Shown: positions 5,148-19,883 of the stretch, piece by piece
Position numbering within the stretch: the stretch's first letter is position 1
Layout: every line of letters begins with the position of its first letter
The notes under the pieces: generated by a model
Seen by the model: the letters and a program-made list of their open reading frames with translations, nothing else
Told to the model about the DNA's origin: nothing
The model's database searches: none
Made by a program: the position numbers and the translations under genes
Assembly: GCA_000934665.2 (NCBI GenBank)
Contig: JYFJ02001450.1
Span: 59,734-79,733, forward strand
Length of the DNA stretch: 20,000 nucleotides
Reading direction: 5' to 3'
Source: Catajapyx aquilonaris
Lineage: Eukaryota

Positions 5148-8100
5148 GTAACTGATGGACCACATTCATAAGCTGAGGATCTCAGTGTTCAGGATAAGCT
5201 TCCCTTTTGAGACGAGTAGAGCTTATGATTGTTTTTCGCATTTTCTTGGATCGCATGGTAGGCTACTGCCTGTGATAAGAGCTTTAGACCAGATATTTTT
5301 AGGCATTTTAGTATGATTAATGTGAATTTTGCTAGAGACGGGATGCAATCATCTTGTAATCTAGTCTACGGTTTTTTGTGTGTGTGCATGAATGTATGTT
5401 TGTTCTCAACGAACGTCAATATGAAGTATTCTGATTCTAGGATCTAGGACAGCATGCGATGTTTGCAAATTTTGCGCATTACGAGTGTTTTCATATGCAA
5501 ATAACGCACGCCACAAAATAATGTTTATTTGACAACTTCCCTGATCACTATATTTGATTAAAATACTCTTCCAGTCATCCCGTCCCCGTCACCTCTGCTT
5601 GGCCGGGTCTTTTTCCGCTTTTCACCCGACATGCCGGAGCAGAATTGCACTTCCTTCTCTGCTCGGGGCCAGGAGAAAAGGCCTGGTGTTAAAGAATGTC
5701 AGAAATGGCTATCGCACGGCGCCCTCCCTTGGGAACTTCCCCTTTCCCCCTAAGAGGGCCTCGAAAATAAATAAATAAATAAATAAAATAAAAATACTCT
5801 TCCAGTCGATGCAACAGCGGACAGTGTAATGATAATAAATGAGGTCGTAAGGCTACGTCGGGCCAATCTCTAAAAAAACTTAAATTTTCAGTGTAATGAT
5901 AATGTGGTCGGCTCGACTATACTCATCGAATCTTTATGCAAGTAGGCGTCTACTGTAACATTGCTACGAAACGTGTGGCTGGAGAATCGGCTACAATTAC
6001 ATGTGGGAAATTTGGCACAGAATCGTTGAGTGATTAGGATAATTGAAAACATAAAAAAACAGCCACGAAAAAGATATGTGTGTGTACATACGTACTACAT
6101 CTCAAAAAATGTGTGGAAATTGCGCGAGAACAAAATAAAGGTGTGATATTTTATTTTCCAAATCATTAGATTAGAGCCTATTTATGATTATGCGAAGAGC
6201 ACATATTTATCCCTGATTTCTGCTTCTAACGGCTGTTAGTTCCATTCTAGCAGCTTTCTTGATGTAAATGGTTTAGTCTACACTGTTGCCCATATGACGT
6301 CAATTCCATTATCCAGCAGTTTAATGAACTGTAGGCAACTGTAGGCCTATGTCTTACAGTCAGACGCCTTTTTTCAACTCCGCGCCTCATTTCAGTCTCA
6401 GACACTTGACCCGGTGCCTTCGACATCACCCATGATCTACGACCTGGATGCCCAAGCTTTGTCCCTGAGGTCAGCAGTGACCCGACTCCGAGGTCAACAC
6501 GAGACCGAGCTGGTGTTTCTCCTGGACTCGTCTTCATCCGTGGGCAAAGAGAACTTCCAGGCCGAGCTTCGTTTCGTGCGAAGACTTCTGGCCGACTTCA
6601 CCGTTTCACCTGAAGCAGCCCGTGTAGCCGTGGTGGTCTTTTCTTCAAAAAAGATGGTCCAGACCCACGTGGACCAGTTGGCAACCCCTGGGCTCAAGTG
6701 CGACCTTCTCCACATGCTCAATGTGGCATATACAGGAGGAGGCACCTACACACTTGGGGCTTTCCTGCAAGCAAATGTAAAATACACTTTCCCTATCTCT
6801 AATTAGTATTTTTTGTCCCACAACTGTAGATCCACCGCTCTCTTAATTAGTGATGTTAATTAAACGCGTTTAAAGGCAGTGCTGTCAATCTTTAAAGTGT
6901 TTTAAAATGCGACAAAAATCGGCGACAAATTGCCCTTAGATCACTAGGCTAGTTAAGAGGCACAATTTACAGCCTACTAGGAGCCATAAAGCCTTATCGT
7001 CACCGGTATAGTTATTTAACATGCATGCCGTAAATTAGACGCATGTCATTTCCCTCAGCTGCCAACATTTTTCGTGTAAATCATGAGCCGACGTCTATTC
7101 ATCAGGCCATATTGCAACATAGTCGACCGGACGCTGCCCGAGCCATATTCCTGGTGACTGATGGCTACTCCAACGCGGGCGATCCGGTACCGGCTGCGGT
7201 ACAGCTGCGGCATGACCACGTCGAAGTCTTCACCTTTGGCATACGGAACGGAAACGTTGCCGAGCTCATGGCCATGTCTTCTCATCCAGTCTCAGAACAC
7301 ACTTTTCTGCTCGACTCATTCCACCAGTTTGAAGCACTAGCTCGACGGGCTCTTCACCAAGGTGGGTTAAACAACACTAATGATTACTCGTATTATAATA
7401 ATTATTGTAATTATTGCAGATCTTCAGTCTGGTGGATATGTGGTCCAAAATGCGTCGATTTGCAAGGAGCTGTGTTATGCGACGGATGGCGATTGTTGTG
7501 ACGAGAGTGCCAGTTGCGTCTGTGGTGTTCACTCTGGAGTGTACTCCTGTGCGTGTCCTCCAGGCCACTTCGGATCCGGAATGTTAGGAGACTGCCATCG
7601 TAAGTAACAAAAACAAAGTTAAAACAAAAAAATAACAATCACATTACACGTCGCCAGAAGAGCAACAGGTGCCAACCGCAAATATCATTTGTGGCAGGCT
7701 CATTATGCCAGAATAAAGTTTCGAGGTTATTTTCACGTGCGCATGTGCATGTGGCGGTTAATTAAAAATGAGGATAATTTTTTCCAGCCTGCCCTCCGGG
7801 AACATTTCGAGATGAAGTTGGCCCCGCTGACGAATCCTCATGTAAAAGCTGCCCAGATCCTCACCAAATGTCAGCCAGTGGTTCAACAACACCCACTGAT
7901 TGCTACTGCTCCCAGGGATACACGCCCACGGACACCGGATGTGCCGGTTAGAGAATTTGTGAAAATTTATTCACGCTGTGACTTTAACACATGTTTCCAG
8001 AAAAAAACACACGCAAATTTGACCCCATCTGAGCGAGGTTAGGGGCACCCTTCAAGGGGCCATTCAAATCTATTCTGGATGTGCTTGATGCTCCTGGAGT

Positions 8101-11100
8101 AAGGTCCGTAGATCTCGAGCTGGTAATCACGGTTGGTACCAAGACGACCGTACTCTGCGTACGTTGTAGGGGGGCAAGGTGGCATCTTCTTCTCCGGGGG
8201 AGGTTCAGTAGCGGCAATGACGTCGGCTACCCCTGATCGACGCTGACTCATCAACAGAAGGTCCTGCACTATCTGGGTAGTCTCTTTGGTTTCGGAGATA
8301 CGCTTCTTCTCTTCCAGACTCTTGAACAGGTCTCTGACAGGGAGATATATTTGTTAAACACACTCGTAGCAACAATGAACGGATTCCAGATAGTTAGGTC
8401 TACAGTAGAAATATTATTCAAACACGTCTTCACTGTAGATATGAGCTAAATTATTGGACACACTGCACAACTCGATTTTTTTCCTCTTCATTTTCTTAAA
8501 GTGATAAAAATTTGTGCAATTTTGCTACGATGATCCACATTTTGTTGTTACTTACTTGTAGTGCTCTTGGACGAACCCCCAGCTTGAACGCCAATAACGT
8601 GCGGTTTTGGCCTCATGGGCGATCAGGTCGCGCCAAATTTGGTCTTGTCCAACCTGGTTGTATTTGTCGAGCTCGAAATCTGTTATCTTGGCGCCGGCCA
8701 TGACTGGAACTTTTTGTGAGACAATTTTGCGCTGAAAAGTTTAGCCTAGCTGGCGTGGGAGTCTCTTGGTAACCGGTCGCCACAGCTAACAATGAGGCAA
8801 AACTGTCATTGTTGGTCACGCACAGTCCAGAAAAAATTACGATTAGGGCCTATACTGTATATTACGATTAGACTACTATTTTCTCTTTGAACACAAAGTA
8901 GTGTATTCATTGCTCATAACGTCATAAGTATCGTAATGTACCCAACGGGCCATAATTATGACTATAGGCTACCTACGATATAGGGTAGTTTTGCTCAAGC
9001 TGATCGATGATACGCCAAAAACAATTTATATCTGCAAAATATGCAGCAACAGGGAGTCACTCCACACGCCCTTCCCACATATTTTTGCAGCCGAGTTTCT
9101 GATATCTGACGGGTGTCATACCCTGTACGTCACGGCCTGCGAAAGGAAGGTTGTTGGTGCTGGATAATTGAATCGATCAGTGTTTGGAGTAAGCCATCAA
9201 ATGAGAAATTCAGTTAGGACTTAAGAGAATATGTACGAGTAAGCTTAATAAGATGAGCTACATGGCGCAAGAAGAAACACACATAATTAGCACACAAGTC
9301 TGGAGACATTAATTTATTATTCTATAAGACCGTACTGTACATCTTTCACTGTTGATGGAATTAGTCAAATTATTATTTTGTCGCATTCTTGGGGAAAAAA
9401 TGTAATATAGTTGTTATCAAATATCAGTAGCAAAAATACTTTTAAACCATAATTTTTATTTAATTTTTATTGAAAATTATTTATATTTAGATATACTACT
9501 TAGGGCAAATTAAATGTAATTCTTGCTGAGTTTTTGACCATAGGCTATTCGTCAACAGTGCACGATCGCTGCATGCTTATCTGATTTCAAATCACTAAAG
9601 CCTACTAACAATGACACATCCGCATTATTCTCTAAGCTTATTGTTACTCAGCAGAGCAACATTGTGCAGATTATTAATTATTAATTACTAGCGTAAAGTT
9701 ATGGATATTTTCAGCATAGCACTAGAACAAAACAGGTCATTTATTATAAAGCCTCTACATGTTTACTTGAAATAATGCGCGTTAGCTCTCGAGCAATTAT
9801 GAACATGCAATTTCATATCACGTTATTGCAAAATATGCAGTGCTTGTAGTCCACCTCATTATGAACCCAACACAGAATAAAATGTACTCTCAGTCCAATG
9901 GGCCGGAAAATCAATGTTTAAAGTAAGTCTACATTAAATAGATCCGTATTACGCACCCACCACCGCTCATTTAATGAAACCCTACGGCAAGTGTACAGTA
10001 CTTTTAATTATTCATTTCAGCCGTCCAATGTCCCCCTCTTCCTCCGATTCCGAACGGCTACTTCGTCCACGGCGAATGCTTGTCCGAATTTCCGTCCGTC
10101 TGCACCATCCGCTGCCGTACCGGGTTCAGGCTGTCAGGAAGCGACGTCCTGGTGTGCTCCTCCGACGGCACGTGGACTGGCAACATCCCACGCTGCATAG
10201 GTAGGTAGGTCAACATTGCAGATCCGGCACATTTACTAATGGTCATGCTTCATGATGCATCGTGTGATTCCAGCCGTTGATTGTCCTCCTCTCCGGGCTC
10301 CCCGTAACGGAGCGATGGACTGCGACCAGCCCAGTGGTGACCATCATCAACAGTGTCGCTTCACATGCGACCAAGGGTACGCTCTGGTGGGTGTCCATCG
10401 ACATACCTGTCTCCCTGGAGGGACCTGGGATGGCGTCACAACTTTGTGCAGGCGTGAGTATACAGCACCTACACATTCATCGGACCATATTTTAAAGTGT
10501 TGAAACACTGATTACTCACTGTGTTAAAAATAGACAATGTAATGTGAAAAAGGACGTTTAAAATGGGATAGTTCTACTCGTAGCATACATGCTGATATTC
10601 GCTGATCATTGCAGCTTTTTGTTGGCGCAAATAAAATATTCGCGCGCGTGTGTACTGTAATGTCAAAAAAGCATTTTGTTCGCAAAACCATGAATATATT
10701 GTAAATGTAGGTTAGCTCTGCAGTGCAGTGTACTCGTATATGAGTTAATCAAAATGGAATAAAATCCTCACCGAAAGTACGGTTCTATAATAATAATGTG
10801 TGAAAAGTGCTCACTTGCAAACGAAGCACTGCAGAGCAGATTTTAGGGTCATAACTTCATTTGAATGAAGAGCTTTACAGTTTTGCAAAAAAAACAAAAA
10901 AAAACATAATGACCAGAAACCACATCCGAGGCTTAGCTTGCAATTTATTAACATAAAATAATGAGCGTGCAAGAGAAGGGTGCTCTGAATCGATCGCATC
11001 ATGTGCTGTATACTGATTGTAAAAGATTAGAGATGCTCTCTGATGACTGAATTCTCTTTCCAGCTGTGTTGTGCCAACCGTTGAACCTGCCCCAACCTCT

Positions 11101-14100
11101 GAGTGTCACAACACGGTGTACGGTGACTAAAGTACAGTACGGAACCACATGCGACATCGGTTGTCTTCCCGGATTCAAGCTTGAAGGAGCTCCAAATGTG
11201 ACCTGCATCGGACACGGATTCTGGAGTGAAGATCTGGACACTTTGAGGTGTGTGGACCATGTTCCTCCTGAGATTATGTGTCCTGATGACCTGGCCGTGG
11301 ACGCTGCGGAGGACGAGTCTTGGGCGCTGGTCAGGTGGGACATACCGGTACCTGTGGACAACTCAGGACTAGTGACCATCACTAGGGCCATCCCGAGCGT
11401 GTCCCCGCCCAGGAAGATGCCAATCGGGATCCATGATGTGACATACATTTCTCAGGATGTGTTTGAAAACGAGGCGAACTGCACCTTCCGCATATCTGTC
11501 ACAGGTAACACCATTTTACTGTACTTACTGCTACATAACCTGATCAATTATTTACATGCTCAGACCGCCAACCACCCAAAGCAGAAGACTGTATTTCACC
11601 TCCGCCCTTTTTATCGAGTGACCCAAACGTGGAGCTGCAATGGGAAGAGCCCACATTTTGGGACAATTCAGGTCAAGAGGTTGTGGTCACCCGGTATCCA
11701 ACCGGCAACACCTTCAAATACGGAACCACCAACGTTACATACAGCGGTACAGACCCTTTTGGAAACACAGTCGAATGCACCATTCAAGTCACCATGCAAG
11801 GTATATGTCCACTATGCTCTCACTAAAGTCAATCGGACAGCGTCCGTAAACGTATTTTATTTGGGACAGAACATGCCTGCGAGCAGATGCCAGACCCTCT
11901 GCATGGTTACTCCAACTGCAGCCGACTTCCAGAAGGACTTGTGTGCACCTTGTCCTGCGAAGATGGATACGCATTCGCACTTAGAGAGCAGCCACTGTAC
12001 TTTTGCGCATTTGACGATGGCTGGGAGCACACCACAAACGTCCTTCCTCTTCCTGACTGCTCTGGTGAGTACAGGCACACTTTTACTATATACACACCTA
12101 ATATAACGTTGCACTTGCCAGTGACGGTACTTCCAACAAGTGTCGCAATGGGAGGAGACCTGGATTTGGACATGATTCTTCCGGAGTTTTGTCACCAACC
12201 GGAACTTCTCGCATTGTTGCTGGAAGGTGTTAGGCACCAGCTGACCGAAAAGGTGCGGGAGTCGTGTCCGGACGGCCTGCGCTGTTCTCTGGACATACAC
12301 GACGCTATGGACACCCTGTGCGGACAAAGGCACAGACGGTCAATCGGCAACAATGTGCTCAAGTTCAACCTGACTGTCGAAGGCGATACGACCAAATTTG
12401 AAGAATTGTCGTCTCGCTTGTCAAAAGAAGAGGTAAAAGTTTTCATCCAGGGACAAAGAGTTTTGGTTGGACGAGTTAAGCCGACAAGGATGTTTCTGAG
12501 TTGCCCGGAAGGATCAACGGCATCGGCTGACAGGCGAAAATGCGGTGAGCGAATTACTTTCTCACAAATTGCTTATTGATCACATGATGCTCACATGTTT
12601 TTTTGGTTCCTTCATCAGTTAAATGCCCTGCCGGATCATACTTTTCTGGAGCTGGAAAATGCTCCAGGTGTCCTAAAGGATCGTACCAGAACTTGCAGGG
12701 TCAGCTGGCTTGCAAAGTGTGTCCGGAGGGAACGTCCACGAAGAAATCCGGACAGAAGAAGAAGGCAAACTGCTCGGGTGAGACAATCCAACGGGCAGTA
12801 CTTGACTTGCGTTTGAAGGTGTGTGTCCTCCCGGCAGGTTTTCTCGTCATGGTCTTGAGCCGTGTCGAGCATGCCGCAAAAGTTGGTTCCAGCCTCTTGA
12901 AGGTTCCTCCAGTTGCTTCAGGTGTCCACGAAAAGCGAGGACACTCAGGAAGGGTTCGACGCGAGCTGGTGACTGCAGAGGTACCTGGTTCCGTCAGTTA
13001 AAATGTTTACATCAATTTACAGCCCGCAAACGTTGCAGATCCGTGTCCTCCGGGCAGTGCTTCTCCAACCGGACTGTCCCCATGTCTTCCGTGTCCTCGT
13101 GGATTTGTCCAGCCCAAAGAAGGACGCACCCTGTGCATTCGGTCGCAAGACCGTACCAAGAGGGTTGAAAACAACTCGTTGTCGTTGATCTCCGCTGCTG
13201 ACGATTGCTTCTCGTCACCTTGCCAATCTGGAGGGACGTGTCGGCCTATGGACGTCGGATTTGTGTGTGTATGTCCGGCAGGATTGTCCGGAAACACTTG
13301 CACCGAAGAGGTTGATCCGTGCCTGTCCTCACCGTGTCTCCGTGCCGGTACATGCCAACATGTACGTGGCGGGCTCCAGTACCGGTGTTTATGTCCCAGA
13401 GGTGTGACAGGATCACGTTGCGAGGTGTTAGACGCATGTGCGTCGTCTCCGTGTAGCAGAGGCGCCACTTGCGTCAACATACCAGGCGGGTTCTTCTGCC
13501 AGTGCAGCATCGGTACGTCCGGAAAACGATGCGAACTGAACGACGACGACTGTGCCGGCGCCACTTGTTTCAACGGCGGAACTTGCGTCGACGGTATCGG
13601 TCGATACACCTGCTTGTGTGCGAGGGGATTCGTTGGGAAGTACTGTGAGGACAGGGTACGGCTGTGCTCTCGAGGTGCCTGTCTGCACAAGGGAGTGTGC
13701 GTCGACACCGACGACGCCGTCGGATTCAGATGCGAATGTCAAGCTAATTACGGCGGTCGTCGTTGCGAGAGAAGAGTGACGGCGTGTCACAGCAATCCAT
13801 GCCCAGAAGGCTCTACTTGCCGGGAAGTACCTGCACGAAGCGGTATTGTCAAGTGCATGTGTCCTCCTGGTCGTACCGGTACCGACTGCCAGATTGGTAA
13901 GTTATAGTTGACGTAGAAATAGAGTTTCGGATCATTCCAACATGTGGCATTTACAGAAGTGGCTGGAAATTTCTCTCTGGTGTTTCCTGTCCCGCGTGTG
14001 ACCAGCGACGTGGTCGTGTTGGACACTGGACTTCGTCGAGACCTGACCCAATTCACGCTGTGCATGTGGATACGGAGCGAAGACAAGCTTCATTACGGGA

Positions 14101-16356
14101 CGCCGTTCTCGTTTGCCACTAGACAAAGCGACAACTCCTTGACCTTGACAGACACCAACGGGTTCGTCCTGTACGTCCTAGGTCAAAGGGCAGTCACAGA
14201 CGCCACAGCCAACGACGCCCGTTGGCACCACTTTTGCGCCACTTGGACGTCCATCGGAGGTCAGTGGACCCTGCACCGAGATGGACAGGAGCTGTCGTCT
14301 GGTCATGGACTGGCCTCAGGAGCGGTCATACCCAAGGAGGGTACGGCCACTCTGGGCCAGGATCAGGACAGACCCGGAGGAGGATTTTCAGCTGTGGAGG
14401 CCCTTGTTGGAGGACTGTCCCATGCGGACTTGTGGGACAGGGTGTTGGACTCTGAGGAAGTGTCCAACTTGTCCCAAAGCTGCCAGCCGCCCTTGGGCAA
14501 CGTGTTGGCTTGGACTGACTTCGCAGATGGACTGCGTGGGAGGGTCAGCATGGACACTGACCCACTGTGCAGTGGATGTCCGGTTCTGGTGCCTCCGGTG
14601 CAAGGTGCGGTAGAGGTGATGGATGATGGGACGTCCAGAGTGGACTGCAACAAGGGGTTTTTGTTGGAGGGGTCTCCGCTGCGAAAGTGTCTTCCAAGTG
14701 GTCATTGGGATGGAGCAGAACCCACTTGTCATCGTAAGTTTTTAGTTCAATATAGCCTACTGTAGGCCTACAATCTAAGCTCTAACAATATAAGTAAGTG
14801 AATATGAATGGATACCAATTACTAATATTTCAGGTGTAAAGTGCCCACCAATGCTCATTACCAATGGGTATGTTGCTGGGGGTGGTTACTACGGGGACAT
14901 ACGGTCATTGCAGTGCAAAGCTGGGTACATGTTGTCTGGACCGAAGCAGTCAGAGTGCCAGTCGGATGGGACCTGGAGTAACATGGAGGAATCTTACTGT
15001 CACGATGGTATGCGCTGTCATGAAATTTTATAGCATGAGCATGACACATTTTGTTAATTTTCAGGGTCAATGTGCAACCCTCCTCTGCCACCTGAGAATG
15101 GCACCACAGTGATCAATGGTCCAATTGCTCAGTTTTCATGCTTACCTGGTTTCCACCTGCAAGGAACTCGCACCCTAACCTGTTTGGAAGATGGTACCTG
15201 GAGTGGCCAATCCCCCCAATGCCTCATACATTGTCCACCTGTACAGGTAAAAAAAATTATCAGTGCATTTAAAAGTTATTGTTCGTCATGCTCCACACTT
15301 GAATTAATGACATCCTTATGCCATTTACAGCCTCCATCAAATGGAACACTTGTCCTTGACAATGAAAATCTCACTCTGGATGGGTACGAAGCAAGTGGAG
15401 CATCTGTTGGTTCTAAGGTGACATTCAGTTGCCATGAGGGCGCCGTATTGGATGGTCCAAATGAGCTGGAGTGTGGGTCTGATGGTTCCTGGTCAGCAGA
15501 ACCACCAATCTGCATCCCAGAATGTCCATACCCATCAGCACCCACAAATGGCTGGGTTCGGGTGGCAGGAAGGCGACCTGGTGATGTCGCGTCATACGGG
15601 TGCAAAGATGGGCATGTGTTGAACGGAAGCTCTGAAAGTGTCTGCTCCAATTTAGGGACATGGAGTGCACCACCTTCCTGTCGGGTCAAGTCCTGTGATA
15701 AGCCTGTTACCAAAGGAGGAGCATCCATAGCTGGATTTGGGTACAATGTTGGACGTCGAATGTTGGTCACCTGCCCTCCAGGTCACCGTCCAATTGGAGG
15801 TGACATTTTGGTCTGTACAGACTCTCTCACTTGGGAAGGCGGTGAAGCAGAGTGTGTGGCAGTCTGCACAACTCCATGCTTGAATGACGGGAAGTGTATC
15901 AGACAGGATTTATGTGCTTGCCCTGCCGGCTACACTGGAGCTCTATGTCAGCACTGTACGTAACACCACAGCATTTTCCATATGCCACGCACAGCTGGTA
16001 AATGTATTGTACCTAGCATGAATCCAGATTTCTGATTGAACATGTCACATCACACAATTTAAACATGGTGTTTAAATGAGCCTCTCTGAATTCTGCCTGT
16101 AGAGTCCTATCAGCCTTTAATAACAACTAATAAGTATGTTTGTATTCTAGCTCTGTGTGTGGTACCATGCCAAAATGGAGGAAGTTGTACAAGTCCGTTC
16201 ATGTGCACCTGTCCTGAAGGGTACACTGGGGATGCATGTCAGACACATTTGTACAGCTCAGGTACAGTATGTTCATGTGATGCCCCTGCTATGCACTCAC
16301 CTTTTCTAAAAATAGTAGCTAAATCCACCTTGTTTGTTTCCTTTACTGTTTTTTAA
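5076..16356 (+). CDS. SVEP1: SVEP1/polydom-like protein (sushi, vWA, EGF, pentraxin, HYR), spliced, ~1948 aa (~1930 aa if the alternative last exon 16531-16571 is used)
   Basis: Hand-assembled phase-compatible GT-AG exons: 5076-5147, 6396-6776, 7106-7361, 7420-7599, 7788-7946, 10021-10200, 10274-10453, 11064-11504, 11564-11800, 11870-12064, 12122-12544, 12619-12777, 12819-12980, 13039-13896, 13957-14733, 14834-15007, 15065-15246, 15331-15955, 16151-16356. Domain order is signal peptide, vWA (MIDAS DSSSS...T...TDG), Cys-rich/ephrin-rec-like, 3 sushi, 2 HYR, sushi, 3 ephrin-rec-like, 6 EGF, pentraxin, 6 sushi, 2 EGF. This is the characteristic SVEP1 architecture. Confidence 0.93.
5560..5807 (+). 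mobile_element. Short 5'-truncated non-LTR retroposon (LINE 3' end or SINE) with target-site duplication
   Basis: Exact 17-bp direct repeat AAAATACTCTTCCAGTC at 5560-5576 and 5791-5807 flanks a 214-bp GC-richer insert ending in an (AAAT)n tail. Confidence 0.8.
6396..6776 (+). CDS. SVEP1: SVEP1-like exon 2 (vWA N-half)
   Basis: tttcag acceptor; ELVFLLDSSSSVGKENF...RVAVVVFS...YTGGGTYT; GTAAAA donor. Confidence 0.9.
7106..7361 (+). CDS. SVEP1: SVEP1-like exon 3 (vWA C-half)
   Basis: catcag acceptor; AIFLVTDGYSNAGDP...VFTFGI...FEALARRALHQ; GTGGGT donor. Confidence 0.92.
7420..7599 (+). CDS. SVEP1: SVEP1-like exon 4 (Cys-rich/EGF-like)
   Basis: ttgcag acceptor; CCDESASCVCGVHSGVYSCACPPGHFGSG; GTAAGT donor. 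Confidence 0.9.
7788..7946 (+). CDS. SVEP1: SVEP1-like exon 5 (ephrin-receptor-like Cys repeat)
   Basis: ttccag acceptor; CPPGTFRDEVGPADESSCKSCPDPHQMSASGSTTPTDCYCSQGY; GTTAGA donor; this frame is not in the ORF track. Confidence 0.9.
8039..8701 (-). CDS. CIMIP1: C20orf85/CIMIP1 (LLC1)-like ciliary microtubule inner protein, 146 aa, nested antisense in SVEP1 intron 5
   Basis: Exon 1 is 8701-8556 (MAGAKITDFELDKYNQVGQDQIWRDLIAHEAKTARYWRSSWGFVQEHY, GTAAGT donor, phase 2). Exon 2 is 8333-8039 (ctgtcag acceptor; KDLFKSLEEK...PPCPPTTYAEYG...FEWPLEGCP*). The motifs NxVGQDxIW, WxxxWGF, PPxPxTT and C-terminal WPxxG match C20orf85 as I recall it. AATAAA on the - strand at 7971-7966. Confidence 0.82.
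8761..8773 (-). promoter_or_regulatory. RFX X-box-like motif upstream of the nested ciliary gene
   Basis: GTTACCAAGAGAC on the - strand (GTCTCTTGGTAAC on +), 60 nt upstream of the ATG at 8701; it has one perfect GGTAAC half-site. Confidence 0.55.
10021..10200 (+). CDS. SVEP1: SVEP1-like exon 6 (sushi)
   Basis: tttcag acceptor; VQCPPLPPIPNGYFVHGEC...CTIRCRTGFRLSGSDVLVCSSDGTWTGNIPRC; GTAGGT donor. Confidence 0.92.
   Translation, partial: PSNVPLFLRFRTATSSTANACPNFRPSAPSAAVPGSGCQEATSWCAPPTARGLATSHAA
10274..10453 (+). CDS. SVEP1: SVEP1-like exon 7 (sushi)
   Basis: ttccag acceptor; VDCPPLRAPRNG...CRFTCDQGYALVG...CLPGGTWDG; GTGAGT donor. Confidence 0.92.
11064..11504 (+). CDS. SVEP1: SVEP1-like exon 8 (sushi + HYR)
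   Basis: ttccag acceptor; CDIGCLPGFKLEG...CVDHVPPEIMCP...WDIPVPVDNSG...CTFRISV; GTAACA donor. Confidence 0.92.
11564..11800 (+). CDS. SVEP1: SVEP1-like exon 9 (HYR)
   Basis: gctcag acceptor; DRQPPKAEDCISPP...WEEPTFWDNSG...GNTFKYGTTNVTYSGTDPFGNTVEC; GTATAT donor. Confidence 0.92.
11870..12064 (+). CDS. SVEP1: SVEP1-like exon 10 (sushi-like)
   Basis: ggacag acceptor; CEQMPDPLHGYSNC...CTLSCEDGYAF...LPDCS; GTGAGT donor. Confidence 0.88.
12122..12544 (+). CDS. SVEP1: SVEP1-like exon 11 (linker with RHRR furin-type site)
   Basis: tgccag acceptor; ...CGQRHRRSIG...SCPEGSTASADRRKC; GTGAGC donor. Confidence 0.85.
12619..12777 (+). CDS. SVEP1: SVEP1-like exon 12 (ephrin-rec-like)
   Basis: catcag acceptor; VKCPAGSYF...CSRCPKGSYQNLQGQLACKVCPEG; GTGAGA donor. 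Confidence 0.92.
12819..12980 (+). CDS. SVEP1: SVEP1-like exon 13 (ephrin-rec-like)
   Basis: ttgaag acceptor after a 41-nt intron; CPPGRFSRHGLEPCRAC...FQPLEGSSSCFRCP; GTACCT donor. Confidence 0.88.
13039..13896 (+). CDS. SVEP1: SVEP1-like exon 14 (Cys repeat + 6 EGF)
   Basis: ttgcag acceptor; DPCPPGSASPTGLSPCLPCPRG, then six EGF repeats (e.g. DDCFSSPCQSGGTC); GTAAGT donor. Confidence 0.93.
13957..14733 (+). CDS. SVEP1: SVEP1-like exon 15 (pentraxin/LamG + sushi)
   Basis: ttacag acceptor; FTLCMW...YGTPFSFAT...WHHFCATWTS...LGQDQD...LWDRVL; GTAAGT donor. Confidence 0.94.
14834..15007 (+). CDS. SVEP1: SVEP1-like exon 16 (sushi)
   Basis: tttcag acceptor; VKCPPMLITNG...CKAGYMLSG...CQSDGTWS; GTATGC donor. 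Confidence 0.9.
15065..15246 (+). CDS. SVEP1: SVEP1-like exon 17 (sushi)
   Basis: tttcag acceptor; CNPPLPPENG...FSCLPGFHLQG...CLEDGTWSG; CAG/GTAAAA donor. Confidence 0.88.
15331..15955 (+). CDS. SVEP1: SVEP1-like exon 18 (3 sushi + EGF)
   Basis: ttacag acceptor; three sushi repeats, then CTTPCLNDGKCIRQDLCACPAGYTG; GTACGT donor. Confidence 0.9.
16151..16356 (+). CDS. SVEP1: SVEP1-like exon 19 (terminal EGF); may end at donor 16261 and splice to 16531-16571
   Basis: ttctag acceptor; LCVVPCQNGGSCTSPFMCTCPEGYTGDACQ; the 3' end is ambiguous. Confidence 0.75.
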
Positions 16357-16867
16357 TTGGTAATATATGAATCACCCTGACTGACCATTCTTATCTGAAC
16401 TATTTGTATGAATAGGCAACACTAAGATGTCACTGGGACAGTGAGGCATTTCGCAGTCCCTACTTCTCATGTAGAAAATATTTATATGGATTCTCTCTGT
16501 ATTCAATTAGTTTTCTTCGGATTCTTACAGAGCATTTCAATTATAACACTGTGCATTTAATTAACTTATAATTAACAACCATTTTATTTTAACATGTAAT
16601 AAACATTCACAGGATATGTCGCATCATGTAGAAATTGCAACTAACTTGTAAGTCACTGCATTCCTATTTGCAAGAGAGCATTATACTATTGATCACATTA
16701 TCATGAATTTGACATATTATTTAAAAAAAATAAATGCCACGTTTCCTGTGGTACTGAAATTTTACGTCTCTTAAACCTTGATATTTATATAACTTATCAC
16801 ATTAACATTATTGTCCTTCTACTTTCAGACTGTACAGGAAAATTCTGCAACCACAGCTGAACGGCCA

Positions 16868-17224
16868 TTACTTTGGAGGTATAACTTGCGCAGTCCCTTC
16901 TACTGCCACAGGCCCGTCTTCATTCTCGACTTTGCATTGAAACCGACATGACGCAATCCGCCTGGTCAATGGTGACGTTATCTCCACCTCCAAGCACACC
17001 TGATCACCACAATAAACAGCTGATGGGAACCTTGCTTCAATTTTAGTTACTACAGTACCAGGGCCAGGTAACTTTGTCCCTACTATGCCAGCCACCAGTG
17101 ACAAGAGGTACGATCCAGGCACCACTCCTCTTTTCCCAGAGTGGATTGGATTTGAGTCGCCAGTCAGGGCAACAAATGCGGCGACGTCTTGAGAGGTGAT
17201 CAAGCGGATGAGTCGAGCCCTCAT
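16868..17224 (-). CDS. HTD2: HTD2-like hydroxyacyl-thioester dehydratase (MaoC/hotdog fold, mitochondrial FAS II), intronless, 118 aa
   Basis: ITSQDVAAFVALTGDSNPIH (hydratase-2 D-x-N-P-x-H motif), GTKLPGPG, RFPSAVYCGD and VEG near the C-terminus. ATG context is acaATGa (A at -3). Confidence 0.85.
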   Translation of the reverse strand: MRARLIRLITSQDVAAFVALTGDSNPIHSGKRGVVPGSYLLSLVAGIVGTKLPGPGTVVTKIEARFPSAVYCGDQVCLEVEITSPLTRRIASCRFQCKVENEDGPVAVEGTAQVIPPK

Positions 17225-17860
17225 TGTGGTAATGGTATGGAAGCACGTAGCGTTGACAACTGGTGCACGTCTGGGTTTATTTCATGCAGGAGGGAGGAAG
17301 CGACATTCTTCACGCGTGCGTCTGGGCTTGAAGCTAACCGCAAAATGCAGTCCAGCACTGGTACTGAGGTCAAAACTGGCTTTGACTCAGGGCAGGCAAG
17401 GTAGTACAGGGTCGTTACTGCTGTTAAGACAATGTCCTCATCAGGTGATGATAAGCAGGTGACAATTAGTGGAAGTGCCCCTTTGGTGACTACAATGTCG
17501 CGAGTCTCAGGATCTGTTGAAGGGACATGACAGAGTTAGATCCTTAAAACTGGTAAATACTTGTACAATGTAAACCGCTAATTACCTGCAACCAAGTTGC
17601 AGAGTCCGCTCAGGGCGAATCTCTTCAGTTCAGGCGATGATGGATTTCCAACCTCGTTCAAGAACAGGTCGATCACATTCAGCTGGCGCAGATACTCAAA
17701 GTTTACTGGATCATATGCAAAATTGGCCAAGTTTGCCAGGACCTGGCACCGAGCCTCTGGTGTAATGAGAGCGGAGCGATAAAAATGAATTAATCATCGT
17801 CACAGATTCATTGCGCTTGTCATAATGATTATTACATTATTGTTGTTGTTGTTGTTGCTG

Positions 17861-17938
<78 letters not shown>

Positions 17939-18069
17939 ATAATTATACAGTATCACACACCTTTTGAGTTGGTGTCCTGAAACTCTGTGACTAGCTGCTG
18001 CAGGTAGTTGTATCTGTCCGTTCCCTTTGACCCGGTCCGTCTGGCAAGGCGGTACTTGCTGGAGAACAT
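17221..18069 (-). CDS. ARMC7: Armadillo repeat-containing protein 7, 190 aa, 3 exons
   Basis: Exons are 18069-17961 ([36 protein letters not shown]), 17756-17586 ([33 protein letters not shown]...[11 protein letters not shown]) and 17513-17221 (DPETRDIV...[20 protein letters not shown]...[10 protein letters not shown]...IPLPQ*). Both introns are GT-AG, phase 1. [10 protein letters not shown] and [13 protein letters not shown] are ARMC7 hallmark motifs. Absent from the ORF track. Confidence 0.93.
17838..17946. repeat. Compound (TTG)n/(TTA)n microsatellite in ARMC7 intron 1
   Basis: Directly visible trinucleotide runs, with more than 20 TTA units. Confidence 0.95.
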
Positions 18070-18169
18070 GACCTCAGTACATGTCCATTACTCGCTGTCA
18101 CATGTACATATTTTCAAGATTCAAGACAGAGCCACTCGTGCACACACTTCACACATGTGGATACGGTAT

Positions 18170-18180: not shown

Positions 18181-18679
18181 ACTGCGGGGCTGGAAGTAGC
18201 ACAACAGCTTGGGGTGAGAGGATCGCACTTGGCGGCGATAGCCGTTGGTGGCACACTGAATAATATTAGCTACTGAATATTTCTGTACATACTTCCTCCA
18301 TTACAATGACAACAATCCATTTAACAATTAAAAAATTCCGTCAGGGGAGAGAGAAGAGAGGGAGAAGAGAAAAGGGGAGGAAGAGGAAAGAGCAAATGTG
18401 AATCCCGTACCGCCAGACCCAGGGTACGGCCCGTACGGGTCTTCTTTTGTCAAATACGGTCAAATCCCGCCCGTCAGGCGGACTCTGTGACTTCAGAACC
18501 ACCCACAGCATCGTTCGGGCATGGTTCAAGCTGGGCCAGAACATGGCCATACCCTCTGGAGAATATAATATTTTAATTACGTGCAAATCAAAATTTCCAA
18601 CGCTACTGTGGTGTCATGATCACTATAATCTGCGTGTCAATATTCGACGGTTCAAAAATTCTCAAAGAGCTCGGAAAAG

Positions 18680-19049: not shown

Positions 19050-19883
19050 TTACAGTATACTTATTAGGCTATATGAGGATTCCACTGTACTTTGTCAATT
19101 ACATTCACCTAAGCTTGTGTGCCATTGAACACAAAAAGCTTTTCGCCTGCGGCGGGCTCTTATTTGCCCTCTCCCTCATTTACATAATTCCTTCTGCCCT
19201 TCCTTTCAACAATTTGCCAAACACCAATGAGGTTATTTTACTAGCATGTAGCCTATATCACGGAGTGGAAAACCATAAGCAGCCACAACGTCTTATGGCC
19301 ATTTTATGAACCAATCCCAGCATGAAATTAGCATTTCGGAATTTTTGTTAATTCCAAAACGCGCTCTATGTGCGCTTTGAAAACGAGCGGGCTTTTTGTG
19401 TTGTGGGGAAGGGGGGGGGGGGCACCATTAATANACAGAATAGTTCCTTCCCCAAAATTCCTATCTGGATCCGCCCCTGCCTGTGACATTGCTGGGTGAC
19501 GGCCACAATCGCCATAGGTTATTTTACGCCATGTCGGTTATAGGAGAAGGGAAATATCCGCCGAGATTGACCAGTTCGTGCCAAAAATATACAGTCCTCC
19601 TTCCGCTTGATCCCTCCTTTCCCTGTGGGTTAACCCTATTTCAGGACTATATTTCCTGTTTTCTTCCGATTCGTGTTTCCTTCGATAAGAACACGACCTC
19701 CTCCTAGTATACCTATCAGCCTAGATAGTACTGTACTACTAAACCAAAGTATATAGAAGACTACAGGTAGAGCCATAACCGATGACGGATCGGGCCGATT
19801 ATAGCGCAGCGGTATGCGACGTCATCGGGATGACAAAATTTCCCGCCAATTATGAAAGACAGGCTCTGGGCATGGGGAAACGG

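Follow-up and report, generated by a model that had tools for sequence, protein, structure and literature searches.

Organization of the ARMC7 and HTD2 reading frames

A 20,000-nt stretch of the Catajapyx aquilonaris contig JYFJ02001450.1 (the window, in which all positions are counted from the first letter) carries on its minus strand a gene for ARMC7 and, directly behind it, an HTD2-like open reading frame (ORF). ARMC7 comprises three exons with all introns of the GT..AG type, and its coding sequence (CDS) of 573 nt encodes 190 amino acid residues (aa) plus the stop codon. The minus-strand junction reads ...CCA TTA CCA CAA TGA, in which the TGA at 17223-17221 ends ARMC7. The HTD2 ORF extends from the ATG at 17224-17222 to the stop at 16870-16868 on the same strand and encodes 118 aa, and zero intergenic bases lie between the two ORFs. 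The ATG of the ATGA is the sole ATG in the HTD2 frame (the ORF holds a single Met), and it has a purine at -3. One public run (X1) with this sequence was found; its kind is not on record, and it was treated as RNA on account of a contig from which a GT..AG intron is spliced out. Coverage gaps and depths of this run were not used as evidence. The features of the locus, with the RNA contigs of X1 numbered 1 to 4, are as follows:

18070..18125, minus strand: presumed 5′ leader, extent approximate, from the ~56 nt of the contig 4 loose end
18069..17961, minus strand: ARMC7 exon 1, coding part (109 nt, phase 1 end), with the ATG at 18069-18067; junction to exon 2 from RNA contig 4
17757..17960, minus strand: intron 1 (204 nt, GT..AG)
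17756..17586, minus strand: ARMC7 exon 2 (171 nt), where conservation of the protein is highest; both borders confirmed by RNA contigs
17514..17585, minus strand: intron 2 (72 nt, GT..AG); RNA contig joint 17513 to 17586, CT..AC on the plus strand
17513..17221, minus strand: ARMC7 exon 3, coding part (293 nt), ending ...IPLPQ + TGA; Pfam Arm
17221..17224, minus strand: ATGA stop/start overlap, the HTD2 frame being -1 relative to the ARMC7 frame; RNA contig 3 identical letter for letter
16868..17224, minus strand: HTD2-like ORF (118 aa), single hot-dog domain, intronless, without N-terminal presequence
16561..16867, minus strand: shared 3′ untranslated region (3′UTR), with AATAAA at 16588-16583 and ATTAAA at 16561-16556; RNA contig 1 stops at 16561

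RNA contig 3 equals 17183-17513 joined to 17586-17634, with 0 other letters and 0 gaps. This spliced contig runs from ARMC7 exon 2 via exon 3 to 38 nt past the ARMC7 stop, that is, into HTD2. Beyond exon 2, RNA contig 4 continues with the end of exon 1 in reverse-complement form (30 letters compared), and its loose end beyond 17758 consists of 165 letters, equal to the 109 nt of exon 1 plus ~56 nt. The 3′ half of HTD2 and the 3′UTR are covered by RNA contigs 2 (16768-17058) and 1 (16561-16711). Co-transcription of both ORFs is well supported but not proven, and one mRNA of ~1.3 kb fits these contigs. In the initial annotation, an ATGA overlap of the two ORFs had been described, HTD2 had been placed as an intronless frame in the would-be ARMC7 3′UTR, and no room had been seen for a poly(A) site between the ORFs. 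All of this was borne out: the overlap is exact in the sequence and unchanged across the junction of RNA contig 3, the spliced ARMC7 RNA continues into HTD2, and the spacer is zero with no canonical signal there.

Between 18200 and 16400 on the minus strand, AATAAA or ATTAAA was found only at 17866 (intron 1), 17281 (ARMC7 CDS), 16588 and 16561, and this hexamer search gave none from the ARMC7 stop to 16588. RNA contig 1 ends 22 nt past the AATAAA at 16588-16583; a poly(A) site near 16561 is weakly suggested by where this one contig stops. The AATAAA at 17281-17276 lies inside the ARMC7 CDS, 53 nt ahead of the stop, and is followed by cccag at 17275-17271; the RNA contig continues across the two. 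Used as an internal acceptor (17272/17271) and spliced to the phase-1 exons, this cccag would leave the ARMC7 frame intact, but such use has no RNA support and was rejected. Readthrough of the ARMC7 stop codon was likewise judged unlikely, given that the ARMC7 frame closes again at a second stop 6 codons beyond the TGA.

One base too many or too few at the junction would produce a false overlap, and the window does contain a single N, at 19434. Against such an assembly error stand the match of RNA contig 3 to 17183-17513 without a differing letter or a gap, and the end of ARMC7 at the IPLP tail of its homologues; the chance that the overlap is an artifact of this kind is almost negligible.

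Homology and integrity of the encoded proteins

A search with ARMC7 exon 2 retrieved 301 proteins at E ≤ 0.001 (top identity 69%), named ARMC7 by their sources across animals, and an armadillo repeat was recognized in exon 3 (Pfam Arm, 3.7e-11). Residues 1-190 of the spliced product correspond to residues 1-197 of the 198-aa Periplaneta ARMC7 with 50% identity, and residues 19-190 align with mammal ARMC7. Identity is alike (∼43-54%) to insects, a mollusc, annelids, echinoderms and mammals, and in a tree of 26 rows the window sequence stood on a long branch (1.25) without a supported clade. Judged by these sequence comparisons, the ARMC7 ORF is a real homologue and no chance frame. The C-terminal IPLP tail is also present in insect ARMC7, which places the TGA at 17223-17221 at the native C-terminus. 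Exon 1 ends in phase 1 after 109 nt in the window and in two metagenome loci described below (L006 and L001) alike. The second intron is also of phase 1, at residue 92/93, and the positions of both introns are common to the three genes; the third ARMC7 intron of the insect-type models (L006, L001) is absent from the window gene. Much of intron 1 is occupied by a (TTA)28 microsatellite (17862-17946) and a short CAA run. As the initial annotation stated, ARMC7 is a minor-spliceosome protein and is listed so in PMC12084885.

HTD2 belongs to the MaoC-type (R)-specific hydratase-dehydratases with a single hot-dog domain. The HTD2 ORF matched the Pfam family MaoC_dehydratas with 33.6 bits (cut-off 27; 3.3e-8), and its closest solved relative by sequence was human HTD2 (3ir3, 2.2e-14). 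The AlphaFold model of the ORF is a complete hot-dog fold, with strand 1 formed by residues 2-8, at a predicted local distance difference test score (pLDDT) of 92.9 and a predicted template modeling score (pTM) of 0.81. The top fold match of the model was again human HTD2 (3ir3_B), with a TM score of 0.87, a root-mean-square deviation of 1.9 A and 38% identity. An exhaustive HMMER search with the ORF gave 1464 matches at E ≤ 0.001; the set that was aligned and scanned (n = 148) consisted of 147 of the 150 matches listed plus P0001, with P0149-P0151 left out. A word-index protein search gave 1 match among 15 candidates for HTD2, and 0 among 394 candidates for ARMC7 exon 3. Across 149 aligned sequences, the columns of D23, N25, G37, G49, P53, G54, G56 and G110 were invariant or at least 90% conserved, and the window ORF has the conserved residue in all of them. 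The D-x-N-P-x-H hydratase-2 motif is present (D23, N25, P26, H28); in an 11-sequence alignment, D23, N25 and H28 were invariant and P26 was at least 90% conserved. The Asp and His of this motif we take to be the catalytic residues, from work on PhaJ. On its sequence and its predicted fold, the ORF is a real HTD2 homologue and no chance frame, and it looks functional.

Two peculiarities of the window protein could point instead to an untranslated 3′UTR relic in decay, with a working HTD2 elsewhere in the genome: the presequence of its aligned relatives is missing, and Pro replaces the usual His in the conserved V-H-G stretch. The Pro variant, however, is also found in P0001, and the short loop after NPIH in the window protein is common to P0001, P0004, P0005, P0010 and P0015. 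The 118-codon frame is intact with all near-invariant residues of the family, the fold model is confident and complete, and the linkage to ARMC7 is conserved (see below), all of which makes a relic very improbable. The same Pro-for-His exchange was seen in a GC-rich group of MaoC proteins (L060, P0001).

Linkage of ARMC7 and HTD2 in other animals

Among the 148 best HTD2 relatives, eight are merged models with a complete ARMC7 first and HTD2 last. They come from eight arthropod species, namely Trichogramma brassicae, Polistes canadensis, Nesidiocoris tenuis, Halyomorpha halys, Lamprigera yunnana, Operophtera brumata, Eupeodes corollae and the decapod crab Petrolisthes cinctipes. The RefSeq merged models of Halyomorpha and Eupeodes are labelled LOW QUALITY PROTEIN, a label given to models that needed correction of a frame or a stop. 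These eight merged or LOW QUALITY models show that annotation pipelines mishandle the ARMC7-HTD2 locus. A Polistes dominula model bears both the ARMC7 and the MaoC Pfam families, and consecutive Periplaneta locus tags are assigned to ARMC7 (ANN_24881) and to a MaoC protein (ANN_24882). In the Polistes models P0058 and P0270, ARMC7 and HTD2 are followed by a third, cysteine-rich C-terminal part of ∼150 residues, which suggests either a longer read-through unit or a further annotation merge.

Metagenome contigs were scanned with a 4-sequence HTD2 alignment, and 80 HTD2-like loci were kept. ARMC7 exons were found only at the 7 best of these 80 loci (L001-L007), upstream of HTD2 and on the same strand in 7/7. 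These seven loci are of animal type, AT-rich with sparse open frames; 16 other loci that were inspected are mostly of 56-70% GC (one of 43%), almost fully open in long frames and prokaryote-like. Two lineages are represented, a termite-like group with four sequence types that are 94-96% identical (L001 is the same as L007, and L002 is close to L004) and L006. In L006, 50 nt separate the ARMC7 stop from the HTD2 ATG, and HTD2 opens with an Arg/Leu/Ser-rich presequence, whereas in the termite-like loci the first in-frame HTD2 ATG lies 442-451 nt beyond the ARMC7 stop. No AATAAA or ATTAAA was found in the spacers of L001 and L006, the two examined.

Loci with 94-96% identity differ in their ARMC7/HTD2 frame offset (0, 1 or 2), and stop codons part the ORFs. 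This varying offset indicates two ORFs and not a fusion, so that the merged database proteins are annotation joins. It also bears on a -1 ribosomal frameshift in the last 19 ARMC7 codons, which would give an ARMC7-HTD2 fusion protein. In the window, HTD2 is read in the -1 frame, which is open from 17281, the heptamer A_AAC_CCA at 17279-17273 stands in the right register, and the merged ARMC7-MaoC models in databases could be read in the same way. Efficient -1 slip sites, however, carry A or U triplets in the second position; A_AAC_CCA, the only candidate heptamer, lacks such a triplet, no downstream structure was detected (z = -0.30), and the offset of the relatives is not constant. A frameshift is hardly credible on this evidence.

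Among ORFs from Logan assemblies, the longest contig has the same length, 1627 nt, for HTD2 P0004 and the full-length ARMC7 P0260, and again, at 2363 nt, for HTD2 P0018 and the full-length ARMC7 P0186. Each pair may therefore lie on one transcript contig, although equal lengths are a hint only.

The initial annotation held that HTD2 had independently become the second cistron behind ARMC7 in the present animal. In this wording the statement is only partly right: the same pairing occurs in the eight arthropod models, in the Periplaneta tags and in all seven animal-type metagenome loci, so the linkage is lineage-wide. On the question of whether the adjacency is conserved in relatives, it was recovered in the arthropod models and the metagenome loci, the spacers in the latter measuring 50 to ∼450 nt. 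The head-to-tail tandem from ARMC7 to HTD2 is conserved across arthropods, and the window holds its most compact form, squeezed to an overlap. Taken together, co-transcription in the window and conserved linkage are very probable.

Around the unit, a plus-strand multi-exon gene with VWA, Sushi, HYR, EGF and Pentaxin domains (SVEP1-like; 6345-16356) converges on the ARMC7-HTD2 3′ end. Ahead of the ARMC7 ATG, at a distance of ∼280 nt, a CT-rich tandem array at 18343-18390 (16-nt period, ∼3 copies) may belong to the promoter region.

Proposed expression of the downstream frame and its significance

In the explanation that we favor, ARMC7 and HTD2 would form one transcription unit that gives a dicistronic mRNA of ∼1.3 kb with ARMC7 (190 codons, 3 exons), HTD2 (118 codons) and a poly(A) site near 16561. 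In the arthropod linkage, 50 to ∼450 nt separate the two ORFs and a presequence precedes the HTD2 domain; the lineage of the window would have lost both the spacer and the part coding for the presequence. Ribosomes would finish ARMC7 at the UGA and restart one base back at the overlapping AUG, by termination-coupled reinitiation, which would yield a low and fixed HTD2:ARMC7 ratio. Observed are the two ORFs with their identities, the overlap, the spliced ARMC7 RNA that enters HTD2, the lack of a poly(A) signal between the ORFs and the conserved linkage; a single mRNA with both complete ORFs, its use as the template for HTD2 and the reinitiation step are inferred. A rough probability of 0.45 is assigned to this explanation as a whole, that is, a compacted dicistronic unit with reinitiation. 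Reinitiation as the main route of HTD2 translation is the simplest reading of the exact overlap and is put forward tentatively. The coding overlap speaks against resolution of an operon by spliced-leader (SL) trans-splicing.

HTD2 could also be made from its own monocistronic mRNA, by way of an internal promoter or processing site in ARMC7 (intron 1, intron 2 or exon 3), the bridging RNA then being an ARMC7 mRNA with a long 3′UTR. Just 45 of 159 annotated Drosophila dicistronic pairs appear to be expressed exclusively from dicistronic transcripts (FlyBase, as given in PMC4528330), the ∼450-nt spacers of the insect relatives could house a promoter, and RNA contigs are unable to show transcript starts or rare forms. 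In the X1 contigs, however, none of the RNA records begins shortly before the HTD2 AUG, a region that contig 3 crosses without a break. Such a start would have to fall in the ARMC7 coding sequence or in tiny introns (72 and 204 nt), and just 50 nt lie between the ORFs in L006. A separate HTD2 mRNA is accordingly regarded as unlikely, though it deserves serious consideration.

Leaky scanning would offer another route on the same dicistronic mRNA: some 40S subunits would bypass the ARMC7 AUG, translate tiny out-of-frame ORFs, resume and reach the HTD2 AUG. ARMC7 of the window has no internal Met in its 190 residues, as is the case in only 2 of 99 homologues of 170-215 aa (P0167 and P0252), where 2-4 are usual. 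Five ATGs lie between the two starts, all in one other frame, with ORFs of 3, 1, 5, 9 and 2 codons, none of which overruns the HTD2 AUG. A longest ORF of at most 9 codons was obtained in 5% of codon-order shuffles and in 13% of synonymous shuffles. Leaky scanning is also described as driving bicistronic loci in green algae (PMC11892635). On the other side, shuffling gave means of 3.8 and 4.3 out-of-frame ATGs, so that the five present are no reduction; a purine also stands at -3 of the ARMC7 AUG, and bypassing six AUGs in succession would leave few ribosomes. Insect ARMC7 of the same linkage, moreover, has 7-8 internal ATGs, some of them in-frame. Leaky scanning past ARMC7 is improbable on balance. 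Four further ATGs occur at 18070-18125 on the minus strand, with mini-ORFs of 3, 1, 4 and 2 codons, and belong to the leader only if the RNA is collinear with the genome; if they do, translation of ARMC7 would itself depend on leaky scanning or reinitiation.

Several points weigh against the dicistronic unit with reinitiation. Positions 17059-17182 are without RNA coverage, no single RNA record crosses both ORFs, contigs cannot reveal transcript ends or rare isoforms, and X1 may share its project with the assembly. The window HTD2 has no N-terminal extension, whereas 10/10 aligned relatives reach ∼7-60 residues further, and the missing presequence leaves a presumed mitochondrial import unexplained. 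The first 20 residues of the ORF include 3 Arg and 1 Asp; if the protein is imported, an uncleaved mitochondrial signal in this Arg-rich start of the domain is possible. A second, conventional HTD2 copy elsewhere in the genome is also possible. In L006 and L001, ARMC7 has 8 and 7 internal ATGs, respectively, plus long spacers, and the route of translation there need not match that of the window. Eukaryotic ribosomes normally reinitiate with low efficiency after an ORF as long as 190 codons. In caliciviruses and influenza B virus, reinitiation at overlapping stop and start codons (AUGA or UAAUG) depends on a termination upstream ribosome binding site (TURBS), motif 1 of which is UGGGA in caliciviruses, complementary to 18S ribosomal RNA and accompanied by a flanking stem. 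The stop and start of the window overlap in the same way, so that translation of the second ORF might hinge on termination at the end of the first; the present case, however, concerns a cellular mRNA with a first ORF of 190 codons, no TGGGA occurs in the 176 nt ahead of the HTD2 AUG, and the predicted fold of the 151 nt spanning the junction is no more stable than that of shuffled sequences (z = -0.30). A yeast study describes that 80S-mediated reinitiation can occur without cis-elements (PMC11952965).

The nearest known system is the bicistronic RPP14-HTD2 mRNA of vertebrates (Autio et al. 2008, as described in PMC4705651 and PMC5932603), in which HTD2 is the downstream cistron, as the initial annotation had stated. 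In both cases, HTD2 of mitochondrial fatty-acid synthesis is a downstream ORF in the 3′UTR, the first ORF belongs to RNA processing, and the linkage is conserved. The partners differ, ARMC7 of the minor spliceosome in the window and RPP14 of RNase P in vertebrates. The ORFs of the window overlap by ATGA, whereas those of vertebrates are separate, with HTD2 within the 3′UTR; HTD2 of the window has 118 aa and no presequence, compared with 168 aa in human as described. The ARMC7 linkage was seen in arthropods and the animal of the window, but not in vertebrates. PMC5932603 describes the RPP14-linked HTD2 as the only functionally characterized protein encoded in a 3′UTR.

The 159 dicistronic pairs of Drosophila in FlyBase release 6.04 (PMC4528330) are also cellular animal mRNAs with two unrelated conserved ORFs, often with monocistronic forms too, and their downstream ORF needs internal initiation or resumed scanning; the stop/start overlap of the window is an extreme spacing by comparison. 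Conserved two-ORF nuclear mRNAs are known, too, from green algae, where bicistronic loci are described as being translated by leaky scanning (PMC7896298, PMC11892635). Loss of AUGs from the first ORF would be the signature of leaky scanning, and the window ARMC7 lacks an internal Met, but out-of-frame AUGs are not depleted in the window and the kingdom is a different one. Full-text literature searches found no paper linking ARMC7 and HTD2, although the FlyBase polycistronic list (PMC4528330, File S1) may already name the fly pair; six other supplementary files of PMC4528330 gave no ARMC7/HTD2 match. The window differs from RPP14-HTD2 in the identity of the partner, the taxa and the overlap, and agrees with it in the enzyme, its downstream position and the RNA-processing role of the first gene.

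It is conceivable, though doubtful at present, that animal HTD2 as a rule rides as a passenger cistron behind a gene for RNA processing, with ARMC7-HTD2 as an ancient pair in invertebrates (at least in all arthropods and the lineage of the window), RPP14 as the equivalent partner in vertebrates, and an AUGA restart by cellular 80S or 40S ribosomes after 190 codons without a TURBS in the window. A second, independent-looking partnership with an RNA-processing gene would show the passenger arrangement to be a property of HTD2 and not an accident of one locus. The arthropod linkage would make this question testable in insects, where genetics is easy, and the ATGA form of the window would be a natural minimal construct for termination-reinitiation coupling after a long ORF on animal ribosomes. 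If the explanation is true, the dose of an enzyme of the mitochondrial fatty-acid and lipoate pathway would be tied to that of a minor-spliceosome factor.

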